A stretch of DNA of 64,000 nucleotides from Escherichia phage bumzen: sequence record MN850635.1; one strand, written 5' to 3'. Positions 126 through 1,656 of the stretch are shown piece by piece (position 1 is the first letter of the stretch; each line of letters opens with the position of its first letter). The notes beneath the pieces were generated by a model that saw nothing but the letters and a program-made list of their open reading frames with translations, was not told the DNA's origin and did no database searches. The position numbers were made by a program, and so were the translations under genes.

Positions 126-155
126 TTGACAGACTCTACAAAGTTGCTCTAAAGT
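126..155 (+). promoter_or_regulatory. sigma70-like promoter candidate overlapping an inverted repeat
   Basis: TTGACA at 126-131, TAAAGT about 18 nt downstream; inverted repeat GACAGACT (128-135) / AGTCTGTC (153-160). Confidence 0.3.
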
Positions 156-194
156 CTGTCACATCAAACAACAAATGAGAGAAGAGAGTAAAAT

Positions 195-1610
195 ATGAGC
201 GAGTTATTTAAACATGCGCACCTTCATGCAGGTCGAACTGAAAATGGTGCTGTAAACCATACTTCATCAATGTCTGCTCTGGTAGACTTCTACAAAGCCG
301 CTGGCTCAAGCCGTAGCAACGTAGAAATCTTACCAGACCTGTTCTACAAAGCTTTGCGTGAGGATGTTGATGTTGCAGTTCGTATTTTGCTTCATATGCG
401 AGATGTACGAGAAGGTATGGGTGAGCGTAAAGCCTTCAGAACTGTTTTACTTCAAGCGATTGAAGACAAAGTTTTAGAGCCTACGCAGGTTCTTCGCATT
501 ATGGATAAGATTGCAGAACTTGGTCGTTTTGATGACTTCAAAATCTTCGTAGGTACTCGTTTCGAGACAGATGCCTTCAAACATCTAGAAGCAGCATTAC
601 TAGACCCTGCAACAGCAGGTTTGGCGGCTAAATGGTTACCACGAGTCAAACCACGTCATAAGCAGTTTGTAAAACGTTTCTGCAAGTTTGCCAACTTGAG
701 TGAGAAAGAGTACCGCACACTGTTGTCTGCACTATCTGATACAGTTGAGCAAAAAATCTCTGCTAATGAGTTTGGTAAGATTGACTACAGTAAGATTCCT
801 TCACTTGCTGCTGCACGTTACCAAAAACTGTTTAACCGCAAAGATGGAGAACGCTACAAAGCTTACATCGAGTCCTTATCAAAGGGTGAGACTAAGATTA
901 ATGCTGGTGCTGTTTACCCATACGATGTAATTAAATCTGTTAAGCATGGTAATGCAGATGTTGCTAATGAGCAGTGGAAAGCACTACCAAACTGGATGGC
1001 AGAGGGTGAAAACATCTTGTGTATGTCTGATGTTTCAAGCTCAATGTCTTGGGTGAATTTTGGTTCAATTACTGCTCTTGATATTGGTGTTTCACTTGCA
1101 TTGTATGTAGCAGAACGTAATACAGGTTGCTTTAAGAATGAGTTGATGGTTTATTCAACAAACCCTCACTTCATCGAACTGAGTGGTGATTTACGAAACC
1201 GTCATCGTCAGGTGATGCGGCACGTTGAATATGGCTCAACTAACTTACAAGCAGCTTTTGACCGTATTCTTGAAACAGGTAAAAGAAACAACTTGACTCA
1301 GAAAGATATGCCAAGTAAGCTTATCATCTTCTCCGATATGGAGTTCAATCAGGTTGATGGAGCTAACGGTCGTACAAACTTTGAAGCAATTCGTAGTAAG
1401 TACAAAAAAGCTGGATACGAAATGCCTCAACTGGTATTCTGGTACTTAGCAAACCGTAATGGTACTTGCGAAGTGTCTGTTAAGGATAACGGTGTAGCAA
1501 TGGTATCTGGTTTTTCTCCAGCTACTTTAAAAGCTCTGCTTGGTGGTGAGAAGTTTGACCCAATCAGCGTAATGCTCAAAGCAGTAATGATTGACCGTTA
1601 TATCTGGTAA
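195..1610 (+). CDS. Ro60-like protein (TROVE-like helical N-terminal region plus C-terminal vWA domain)
   Basis: 471 aa ORF; vWA MIDAS-like motifs SDVSSSMS and LIIFSDMEF; N-terminal segment GMGERKAFRTVLL; the motifs resemble Ro60 as I recall it (DVSASM, FIVFTDNETF). Confidence 0.55.
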   Translation: MSELFKHAHLHAGRTENGAVNHTSSMSALVDFYKAAGSSRSNVEILPDLFYKALREDVDVAVRILLHMRDVREGMGERKAFRTVLLQAIEDKVLEPTQVLRIMDKIAELGRFDDFKIFVGTRFETDAFKHLEAALLDPATAGLAAKWLPRVKPRHKQFVKRFCKFANLSEKEYRTLLSALSDTVEQKISANEFGKIDYSKIPSLAAARYQKLFNRKDGERYKAYIESLSKGETKINAGAVYPYDVIKSVKHGNADVANEQWKALPNWMAEGENILCMSDVSSSMSWVNFGSITALDIGVSLALYVAERNTGCFKNELMVYSTNPHFIELSGDLRNRHRQVMRHVEYGSTNLQAAFDRILETGKRNNLTQKDMPSKLIIFSDMEFNQVDGANGRTNFEAIRSKYKKAGYEMPQLVFWYLANRNGTCEVSVKDNGVAMVSGFSPATLKALLGGEKFDPISVMLKAVMIDRYIW

Positions 1611-1627
1611 AAAGTTTTAAAAAGGGT

Positions 1628-1656
1628 ATTGACAATGTGTTTGATACCCTTTAATA
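1628..1656 (+). promoter_or_regulatory. sigma70-like promoter candidate
   Basis: TTGACA (1628-1633), 17-nt spacer, TAATAT (1651-1656); flanked by inverted repeat AAAGGGTAT / ATACCCTTT. Confidence 0.5.

Follow-up and report, generated by a model that had tools for sequence, protein, structure and literature searches.

Probable composite promoter/stem-loop cassettes around the DUF2828 gene of a Felix O1-like Escherichia phage

The window analysed here is a stretch of 64,000 nucleotides (nt) from Escherichia phage bumzen (sequence record MN850635.1) and contains near its left end a DUF2828/DUF7788 gene that is preceded and followed by predicted sigma-70-type promoters whose hexamers are part of inverted repeats. 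On balance, these sites are probably composite promoter/stem-loop cassettes of the promoter-early stem-loop (PeSL) type, present here in a Felix O1-like phage. Each cassette occupies about 80 nt between two genes and consists of a stop codon in an A/T tract, a near-consensus sigma-70 promoter and a stem-loop overlapping the -35 and/or the -10 hexamer. At least six such units were found in the window, which belongs to a myophage of the Ounavirinae (Felixounavirus) with Escherichia phage vB_EcoM_ASO1A as best match (98.8% identity; base 1 of the window is base 24471 of ASO1A), and more than 12 repeated cassettes, which fall into two types, are present beyond the window in the early region of ASO1A. 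From the anatomy of the units, the statistical excess of repeats, their conservation and their strand-specific pairing pattern we infer promoter activity, formation of the hairpins in RNA and attenuation of upstream transcription. An earlier note on this DNA had offered two explanations. Hairpins acting as terminator-promoter units are supported as far as a sequence can tell, by the match with PeSLs and by the listing of one hairpin as terminators t42 and t43 of phage Felix O1, whereas operator-controlled early promoters are at odds with six unrelated arm sequences, a varying spacing and the retention of pairing rather than of sequence.

For comparison, 41 orthologous loci were gathered from viral and metagenome contigs, which provided 36 distinct sequences for the upstream promoter P126 and its stem-loop 1 and 33 for the downstream stem-loop 2. 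Individual loci carry L-numbers as labels, including L033 for ASO1A, L034 for Erwinia phage Roscha1 and L076 for Vibrio phage PVA8. The first 2,400 bases of the window match 259 phage records. The flanks of distant gene homologues (29-41% identity; L028-L032 and L050 onward) are unrelated and were uninformative for the promoter and hairpin sites.

P126 (Table 1) is the predicted driver of the DUF2828 gene, with a start expected near positions 161-163, and is already contained as a predicted promoter in the GenBank record MZ726791.1 of ASO1A (24596-24625). The overlap of its TTGACA with an inverted repeat, placed at 128-160 in the earlier note, was confirmed, the perfect 9-bp core being TGACAGACT (127-135) and AGTCTGTCA (153-161). 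Past the bulged T127, the core is extended by GATGT (122-126) and ACATC (161-165) to a total of 13 bp. In this stem-loop the +1 region is the partner of the -35 hexamer, and the bases just after that hexamer pair with the 3' half of the -10 hexamer. The RNA fold has a free energy of -16.2 kcal/mol (z = -3.75) that was equalled by none of 300 dinucleotide shuffles; z-scores refer to 60-mers centred on the promoters and folded as single-stranded RNA. As in PeSLs, the stop codon of the upstream neighbour, a DUF5681-type gene, is located in an A/T region (TAA 111-113 inside AAAAAATAATCTTAAAAG), and a Shine-Dalgarno (SD) sequence, GAGAAGAGAG, and the start codon ATG 195 follow downstream. The tract at 105..125 moreover resembles an UP element for P126. 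Because its tail, CAAACAAC, lacks a U-tract, stem-loop 1 does not qualify by sequence as a canonical intrinsic terminator.

Downstream of the DUF2828 gene, the stop codon TAA 1608-1610 is followed by AAAAAGTTTTAAAAAG, again in the manner of the PeSL A/T tract, and the tract at 1609..1628 is invariant in the 33 distinct sequences but for one T to C change. It leads into P1629, the first of two tandem promoters before a cluster of 25 tRNA genes, which is nearly invariant in Felixounavirus, Suspvirus-like and Mooglevirus-like loci. The TTGACA-17-TAATAT promoter that the earlier note had described as lying between repeat arms at 1619-1650 is present, but the arms are located at 1621-1652 and do not strictly enclose it: the left arm ends on the first T of TTGACA and the -10 hexamer begins on the last T of the right arm. 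The perfect 9-bp core of this stem-loop 2 is AAAGGGTAT (1621-1629) and ATACCCTTT (1644-1652), and its RNA fold has a z-score of -2.55. The weak U-rich tail AATATGT makes partial termination plausible. In Table 2 of the Felix O1 genome paper, gggtattgacaatgtgtttaatacccttt is given as the predicted rho-independent terminator t42 (23547..23575) and its complement as t43 (Whichard et al. 2010, PMC3185647). The t42 sequence is that of stem-loop 2 (1624-1652) and lies 152 nt before tRNA-Pro in the window and in Felix O1 alike; the TTGACA-17-TAATAT promoter within t42 is not noted in that paper (PMC3185647). The region 1609-1700, running from the stop codon past P1629 for about another 45 nt, hardly varies among three genera in which coding DNA is only about 80% identical, a degree of conservation that exceeds what a promoter alone would need. 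The leaders of P1629 and P126 share the words ACAT(A/C)(G/A)AAAC..AAATGAGAG.

The second tandem promoter, P1720, is located 91 nt past P1629 and was absent from the list of the earlier note. Its 7-bp repeat consists of AACCACT (1725-1731) and AGTGGTT (1747-1753), the hairpin tail ACAUAG contains no U-tract, and tRNA-Pro begins at 1776. In the orthologues 96% of the cells are paired, the changes being C to T substitutions that give U.G. The window pairing is lost in the L019-22 group, in which another pairing, AACACTA/TAGTGTT, lies within the spacer (z -2.4). P1629 and P1720 both precede tRNA-Pro, and neither is followed by the SD sequence and start codon of a PeSL.

The conservation pattern around P126 separates hexamers and stem from the spacer. 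Its hexamers are unchanged in the 36 orthologues, except that the -10 hexamer is either TAAAGT or TAGAGT, and 13 of the 14 non-hexamer spacer positions are variable as against 5 of the 18 non-hexamer stem positions. Stem-loop 1 is paired in 99.1% of cells. The pair 123-164 is AU in 12 sequences, GU in 19 and GC in 5 and never A.C, with the G-C state occurring in two separate groups (L047 and the L019 group), and the pairs 133-155 and 134-154 vary solely to G.U and U.G (133 A to G, 134 C to T). Although the P126 spacer is rewritten in more distant genera, the stem-loop is longer and stronger there, reaching -18.9 kcal/mol in L019 (z -4.5), -22.5 in L022 (z -5.05) and -19.0 in L017 (z -4.6). For stem-loop 2 the paired share of cells is 100%, with UA/UG, UG/UA and GU/GC at the three pairs that vary, and the substitutions in relatives are 1643 G/A, 1642 T to C and 1646 A to G. 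Arm changes almost all result in A-U, G.U or G-C on the + strand, and the loops diverge; every wobble state is a G.U pair of the + strand that would read as a C.A mismatch on the - strand. A lack of conserved repeats in relatives, which the earlier note had named alongside transcription start sites mapping elsewhere as grounds against its proposals, was not observed, as the repeats are kept across three genera.

The window, of which 5,639 bases (8.8%) are non-genic, was searched for perfect inverted repeats (minimum arm length 9 bp, loop length 3-30 nt). Seven of the 12 repeats found are non-genic, compared with 0.85 +/- 1.0 expected (maximum of 3 in 40 shuffles), which corresponds to an approximately 8-fold enrichment. 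Additionally, 12 promoter-like sites that had been picked without regard to repeats yielded a mean z of -1.28 as 70-mers, whereas 160 random 70-mers gave -0.41 (Mann-Whitney p = 0.005). The hairpins of the window have z-scores of -1.5 to -3.75, reaching -5.05 in orthologues, and stems of 13 bp (122-165), 12 bp (1621-1652), 7 bp (1725-1753), 10 bp (47102-47131) and 13 bp (34512-34558). The hexamer TTGACA is not over-represented in the window (72 found, 67 expected), and the promoter scan, with 55 sites compared with 42.6 expected, exceeds its shuffles just slightly. What marks the promoters is rather their intergenic context, the upstream A/T tract and the spacing of 17-18 to TAnnnT, and we take P126, P1629 and like sites as genuine sigma-70 promoters. 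As in PeSLs, near-consensus -35 and -10 hexamers in intergenic position can be recognized in the sequence at 126, 1629, 1720, 47094 and 36417(-), and stem-loops with G-T pairs allowed lie within or overlap the promoters.

Table 1. Positions of the predicted promoters, stem-loops and associated features in the window
Feature	Position	Strand	Composition	Basis
A/T-rich tract AAAAAATAATCTTAAAAGATG	105..125	+	holds stop codon TAA 111-113 of the DUF5681-type gene	conserved in 36 distinct orthologues
Stem-loop 1	122..165	+	13-bp stem, 122-126 plus 128-135 with 153-165; T127 bulged; 17-nt loop	
Predicted sigma-70-type promoter P126	126..155	+	TTGACA 126-131, 18-bp spacer, TAAAGT 150-155	promoter scan
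DUF2828/DUF7788 gene (vWFA, 'Ro60-like')	195-1610	+		Pfam DUF2828 and DUF7788
A/T tract AAAAAGTTTTAAAAAGGGTA	1609..1628	+	directly 3' of DUF2828 stop codon TAA 1608-1610	
Stem-loop 2	1621..1652	+	AAAGGGTATTGA / TTGATACCCTTT, 12 bp including T.G, G.T and A-T pairs; 8-nt loop	repeat search, RNA fold
Predicted sigma-70-type promoter P1629	1629..1657	+	TTGACA 1629-1634, 17-bp spacer, TAATAT 1652-1657	promoter scan
Predicted promoter P1720	1720..1753	+	TTGACA 1720-1725, 18-bp spacer, TAAAGT 1744-1749, TG-extended	promoter scan
Stem-loop with - strand promoter-like site	34511..34558	-	13-bp arms AAATAAGCTATAA / TTATAGCTTATTT, 34512-34524 / 34546-34558	repeat search; fold z -3.4
Predicted promoter at 36417(-)	36361..36417	-	TTGACA 36417-36412, 16-bp spacer, TATACT 36395-36390, A/T tract upstream	scan, fold
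Predicted promoter and stem-loop at 47094	47094..47131	+	TTGACA 47094-47099, 17-bp spacer, TAGAAT 47117-47122	scan, fold

Three further units are located elsewhere in the window. The 47094 stem is formed by AGGGTATCAA (47102-47111) and TTGGTACTCT (47122-47131), comprises 10 bp with two G.U pairs (z = -1.9) and lacks a U-tract; GAGG and then ATG 47159 follow as in PeSLs. The GGGTAT that the earlier note had seen next to this TTGACA is real (47103-47108), but it is part of the left arm of the 47102-47131 hairpin, a different one from those flanking the DUF2828 gene, and not a motif shared between sites. Mordin and EcSzw_1 retain this hairpin, shifted in register by 1 nt. For one of its pairs the window has T.G, SUT_S820 T-A and Mordin C-G, which amounts to a compensatory T-A to C-G change with T.G as intermediate. 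The promoter-like site assigned by the same note to the - strand is indeed enclosed by a repeat, the loop holding TTGACA (34539-34534), with merely TATTTT as -10 hexamer at spacing 17 and TATACT at spacing 23. It is situated 46 nt upstream of ATG 34466 (GAGGT as SD sequence), the first gene of a - strand block that includes a helix-turn-helix (HTH) gene, and thereby also has the PeSL order of SD sequence and start codon; the unit differs by one base in Moogle, SUSP1 and AYO145A and is annotated as a predicted promoter in AYO145A. At 36417(-), the 9-bp repeat TGGTGAGTA (36402-36394) / TACTCACCA (36369-36361) spans the -10 hexamer and approximately +15 to +23. An AAAAA..TTTTAAAAAG A/T pattern is found upstream of the -35 hexamer at 126, 1629, 1720, 42271 and 36417(-), and the A/T tract of the intergenic sites contains or abuts the stop codon of the preceding gene. 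Because the arms are unrelated between sites, the changes in relatives are compatible with + strand pairing and one of them is a compensatory T-A to C-G replacement, the hairpin is best regarded as an RNA element of read-through transcripts and not as a shared operator.

According to the cassette reading, the promoter would be read by the unmodified host RNA polymerase, with a start about 7 nt after the -10 hexamer, at or past the 3' arm of the stem. Since they would start there, transcripts from the embedded promoter would lack the hairpin, which would be a + strand RNA element present only in transcripts arriving from the upstream gene. In such read-through RNA the hairpin would attenuate or end the transcript, or leave a nuclease-resistant 3' end, and each cassette would insulate its own gene from upstream transcription and restart expression at its own rate. 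Because the promoter hexamers themselves form part of the arms, complementarity to the other hexamer would be maintained in the bases behind the -35 and behind the -10 hexamer. In the case of stem-loop 1 and the 1720 and 47094 hairpins, the effect might be pausing or attenuation by another route, or protection of a 3' end after cleavage in the A/U-rich tract. Recognition of the two hairpins flanking the DUF2828 gene as RNase III sites is unlikely with stems of just 12-13 bp.

Several observations weigh against the PeSL reading. The hairpins of stem-loop 1, 1720 and 47094 have no U-tract and loops of 10-17 nt, those of 15-17 nt being long for intrinsic terminators, and 'terminator' may be the wrong word for them. 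Erwinia phage Roscha1 (Kolesnikvirus) keeps a counterpart of P126, TTGACA-17-TAAATT, but not the hairpin (z +0.9), and the promoter-like sites 3119 and 46755 are without excess structure. Formal covariation is weak, in that double-sided changes do not occur within the sets of 36 and 33 orthologues (pairing of 98.6-99.1%), column shuffles reach the observed covariation score in 63 of 500 and 299 of 500 trials, and the strand and wobble argument is based on about 10 substitution events. Moreover, PeSL stems are mostly of the G-run/C-run form, whereas those described here are mostly AT-rich and promoter-specific. A literature search for start-site, 3' end, reporter or transcriptome data on Felix O1-like phages found none.

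A more far-reaching version of the cassette reading can be formulated, which we consider unlikely in its entirety. With a stem built from the promoter's own -35 and -10/+1 sequences, the hairpin would emerge in nascent RNA just as the upstream polymerase meets a promoter occupied by another polymerase, and roadblock and hairpin together would release the incoming polymerase without a U-tract, making the promoter self-insulating; the cassettes would also have acted as joints at which recombination transferred the DUF2828/vWFA gene, along with its promoter and leader, between Ounavirinae and KVP40-like T4-type phages.

On either side of the DUF2828 gene lies a unit, and the leaders of the two, ACATCAAAC..AAATGAGAG and ACATAGAAACGAAATGAGAG, are related. 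Roscha1 lacks the DUF2828 gene at the homologous position, the only one searched, and has a tRNA-like gene immediately after its P126-like promoter. The ASO1A genes 017-019, one of which has no homologues, are flanked by two identical cassettes of about 97 nt. These three cases fit a PeSL-style modular exchange but do not prove it. The tRNA-like gene of Roscha1 (L034, 2361-2433) is unannotated and has an irregular anticodon loop (ARAGORN 'tRNA-???, anticodon tt'). Homologues of DUF2828 also occur in KVP40-like T4-type phages (L076, Vibrio phage PVA8, 1076-2512), with about 68% DNA identity over 270 nt, and this distribution points to a transfer between phage families.

Two explanations that place the repeats outside + strand RNA appear very unlikely. 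If supercoiling drove the arms into a cruciform or a non-template hairpin, the -35 and -10 hexamers would be hidden and promoter strength would follow DNA topology; the arms contain the promoter hexamers, and extrusion would indeed destroy the promoter. The central spacers of 8-21 nt are, by established knowledge, long for cruciform extrusion, the stems are short and AT-rich, and the G.T states that are common in relatives correspond to C.A mismatches on the other strand. Horwitz and Loeb are said to have described artificial promoters of this supercoiling- or cruciform-dependent kind in 1988. Alternatively, the sites could be intrinsic terminators of the - strand, at which the upstream A-tract, read as a U-tract after the hairpin, would stop antisense transcription. 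Read on the - strand, the sequence after stem-loop 1 is TTTTAAGATTATTTTTT and that after stem-loop 2 is TTTTTAAAACTTTTT, t43 is the terminator listed for the complement of stem-loop 2, and the antisense fold at P126 is more stable (-21.8 vs -16.2 kcal/mol). However, the genes from 1 to 30945 are all encoded on the + strand and no - strand promoter faces the sites, the variant bases of relatives give mismatches on the - strand, and the 1720, 47094 and 36417 hairpins have no adjacent antisense T-run.

The operator explanation, in which a dimeric phage regulator binds the duplex repeats and shuts early promoters, is in our opinion likewise very unlikely. The repeats overlap the -35 and/or -10 hexamers, where repressors act, and the timing mechanism of Felix O1 transcription is not understood (PMC3185647). 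The earlier note had suggested a cognate regulator among the HTH proteins, and a Cro/C1-type HTH protein is indeed encoded at 33577-33906 (Pfam HTH_3, E 6e-10), in the operon led by the 34539(-) site, but it has no evident connection with the sites. The six sites have six unrelated arms (TGACAGACT, AAAGGGTAT, AACCACT, AGGGTATCAA, AAATAAGCTATAA and TGGTGAGTA), the half-site spacing varies between 14 and 24 bp, substitutions keep pairing and not sequence, the 47094 stem shifts its register between genera, and the L019-22 group uses a different right arm at 1720. The shared GGGTAT is located upstream of the -35 hexamer at one site and downstream at the other. A shared operator half-site was not detected among the sites, since the common word AAAGTCTGT occurs 4 times with 1.4 expected and 6 of 100 shuffles are as high; it recurs at 151, at 34539(-) and in two ASO1A promoters.

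A translational role like that at the T4 lysozyme gene, with the structure of read-through RNA lowering ribosome access and the RNA of the embedded promoter being freely translated, is also very unlikely for the units as a group; at P126 it is a minor possibility. As the promoter is enclosed by the structure, folding would be confined to read-through RNA, and the SD region 178-190 is predicted to be unpaired with 0.75 in RNA from 162 and with 0.46 in read-through RNA 60-240. This predicted effect is small and due to a weak outer helix, the 3' arm stops at 165 with 13 nt left to the SD sequence and 30 nt to the AUG, and P1629 and P1720 precede untranslated tRNA genes. A chance origin, with short inverted repeats falling near AT-rich promoter-like hexamers, would be compatible with the expected frequency of TTGACA, the yield of the promoter scan and the commonness of 5-7 bp repeats, but is hardly tenable in view of the excess of non-genic repeats, orthologue z-scores down to -5 and the retention of the repeats across genera while spacers diverge.

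The product of the gene at 195-1610 is named vWFA protein, RNA-binding protein or hypothetical protein in GenBank. A DUF2828 relative with 40% identity (L028, 3501-3800) has the tRNA T-arm motifs GTGGTTCAATTCCAC and GTGGTTCGAAGCCAAC immediately 3', and a link of the protein with tRNA-like RNA would fit a role like that of Ro60 and Y RNA. A scan of positions 1-8000 against Rfam with E up to 1 recovered tRNAs only and no known family at either repeat. Among the matches to the tRNA model, the one at 3352-3430 (33.4 bits, gathering score 29) was not called by ARAGORN and overlaps the start of the open reading frame 3397-3795.

Two other repeated elements were noticed in the window. A non-coding unit of about 130-150 nt occurs in four copies in 34560-34990 and 36030-36330 (- strand) and is composed of TTTTTAAAAGGTCTTTAAACAGGGTCTTTTAAT, about 10-14 pentamers GGTNN (ACCNN on the + strand) and ATGGGTAGTTAGTCTCAGCTACATTAAAATGAGAC with a 7-bp inverted repeat. 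The GGT period of 5 is constant, while the 2-nt spacers vary between copies and among Moogle, SUSP1 and AYO145A; one copy is located just downstream of the 36417(-) promoter and may be transcribed. The unit might represent iterons or a pac site, a C-rich rut-like antisense sequence, or an RNA for a ring-shaped protein that reads triplets. The 11-mer TTGACAAGGTG is present exactly three times in the window (38967-38977(-), 42283-42293(+) and 58032-58042(+)) and once in ASO1A (L033, 24075); with one mismatch there are 7 matches compared with 2.2 expected, and no shuffle was as high. At two of these sites, located in the two divergent intergenic regions, the -35 box is doubled (TTGACAAnGnACTTGACAAGGTG), and a separate promoter class may be involved.

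The early region of ASO1A (L033, 8300-14420) is tiled with two repeated intergenic cassettes. Type B consists of TTGACA-17-TAAATT-ACACATCAAC with the hairpin GGGGAGGgaatgaCCTTCCCC at the 5' end of the transcript and a conserved leader, and type A of a roughly 19-bp hairpin interrupted by internal loops (AAAGTACTTTACAAGGGGCTTA..TAAGCCCCAGATAAAGAGCTTT; z about -4). Paralogues of type A differ in the stem yet stay paired (GGGGCTTAA/TTAAGCCCC vs GGGGTTATC/GATAGCCCC), and these cassettes appear to be better candidates for RNase III-type processing than stem-loops 1 and 2. A description of type A as a TTTACA-17-TAAAGT promoter with embedded hairpin is doubtful, as TTTACA lies within the long stem and the variable '-10' in the loop. 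Several type A and type B hairpins of ASO1A are annotated in GenBank as terminators after promoters. ASO1A additionally has five copies resembling TTTTCATTT(T)nnAAAnnGTGCAGGTA (7615-8145 and 3520-3550), found within 500 nt of non-coding DNA and behind the rIIB terminator.

Typing, biocontrol and therapy make wide use of Felix O1 and its relatives, whose transcription programme is essentially unmapped; how read-through past the many hairpins and terminators and temporal control are achieved in Felix O1 is not understood (PMC3185647). If many predicted 'terminators' and 'promoters' are two halves of one cassette, a concrete and testable map of transcription units would result, useful for annotating and engineering Felix O1-like phages. 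As a correction of the annotation, t42 contains a predicted promoter for the tRNA cluster. The PeSL idea would moreover be extended beyond T4-type phages, with a bearing on the swapping of small genes together with their regulatory signals. The prediction of t42/t43 for stem-loop 2 and the GenBank annotation of P126 were already known; no new mechanism is revealed, and the result is unlikely to surprise a specialist in phage transcription.

Among known systems in which a promoter is associated with a hairpin, the early promoters of phage N4, used by the virion RNA polymerase, and single-strand promoters such as Frpo of the F plasmid are those in which the DNA hairpin itself is the promoter. 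In contrast, a hairpin at the sites described here would pair the -35 hexamer with the +1 region and destroy the sigma-70 promoter. The hairpins with internal promoter of phage T4, at the lysozyme gene e, gene 49, soc and I-TevI, block translation by covering the SD sequence or the AUG with their 3' arm. They share with the present units the position of the promoter inside an inverted repeat and the restriction of folding to transcripts from further upstream, whereas here the 3' arm ends at least 13 nt before the SD sequence and two units precede tRNA genes. Felix O1 encodes no RNA polymerase of its own (PMC3185647).

Intrinsic terminators are approached by stem-loop 2 alone, as GGGUAU..AUACCC plus UUUAAUAU: it is t42/t43 (Whichard et al. 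2010, PMC3185647) and directly follows the stop codon of the gene before it, but its tail is UUUAAUAU and not a U run. The combination of a GC-rich stem, a loop of 3-8 nt and an immediate U run was not found, and a consensus scan called none of the sites.

The closest resemblance is to the PeSLs of RB49/phi1, T4/PST and KVP40/nt-1, with which the units share the parts list, a variable register of the stem-loop and G-T pairs. In RB49 and phi1, PeSLs are repeated intergenic cassettes with a stop codon in an A/T region, sigma-70 -35 and -10 boxes, a stem-loop, an SD sequence and a start codon (Arbiol et al. 2010, PMC2839356). Five subclasses are distinguished there, with the stem-loop between the boxes, overlapping the -35 or the -10 box, upstream of the -35 box or just after the -10 box, and G-T pairs are marked (PMC2839356). 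The reduction of lacZ expression by one PeSL stem-loop equalled that by rrnB T1, a whole PeSL was a very strong promoter of approximately 13,000 Miller units, and attenuation of upstream transcription and a function of the cassettes as recombination joints for small genes were proposed (PMC2839356). Terminator activity, promoter strength and recombination mini-circles have been demonstrated for PeSLs, whereas the present units are known from their sequence. PeSLs were defined in T4-type phages (Straboviridae) and the units described here belong to the Ounavirinae; a literature search for papers on PeSL-like cassettes in Felix O1-like phages returned none. A further difference is that the P126 stem is built from both promoter hexamers themselves. 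Stem-loop 2 has the A3G3-loop-C3T3 form of the nt-1/KVP40 group, for which the stem consensus is A3-4G3-loop-C3T3-4 (Comeau et al. 2014, PMC4122927). The rIIB promoter of ASO1A, TTGACA-A-GGGGCTT-CA-AAGCCCC-T-TAGAAT, with its G4/C4 hairpin in the spacer, corresponds to the classic PeSL with G-run and C-run. Vibrio phage PVA8, which is KVP40-like, has a homologue of the DUF2828 gene (45% identity over 482 aligned positions) with TTTACA-CGGGTTCAAATCCGTG-TATAAT in front of it; a hairpin joins these -35 and -10 hexamers, and the start region CACATCGAAAC resembles CACATCAAAC at P126.

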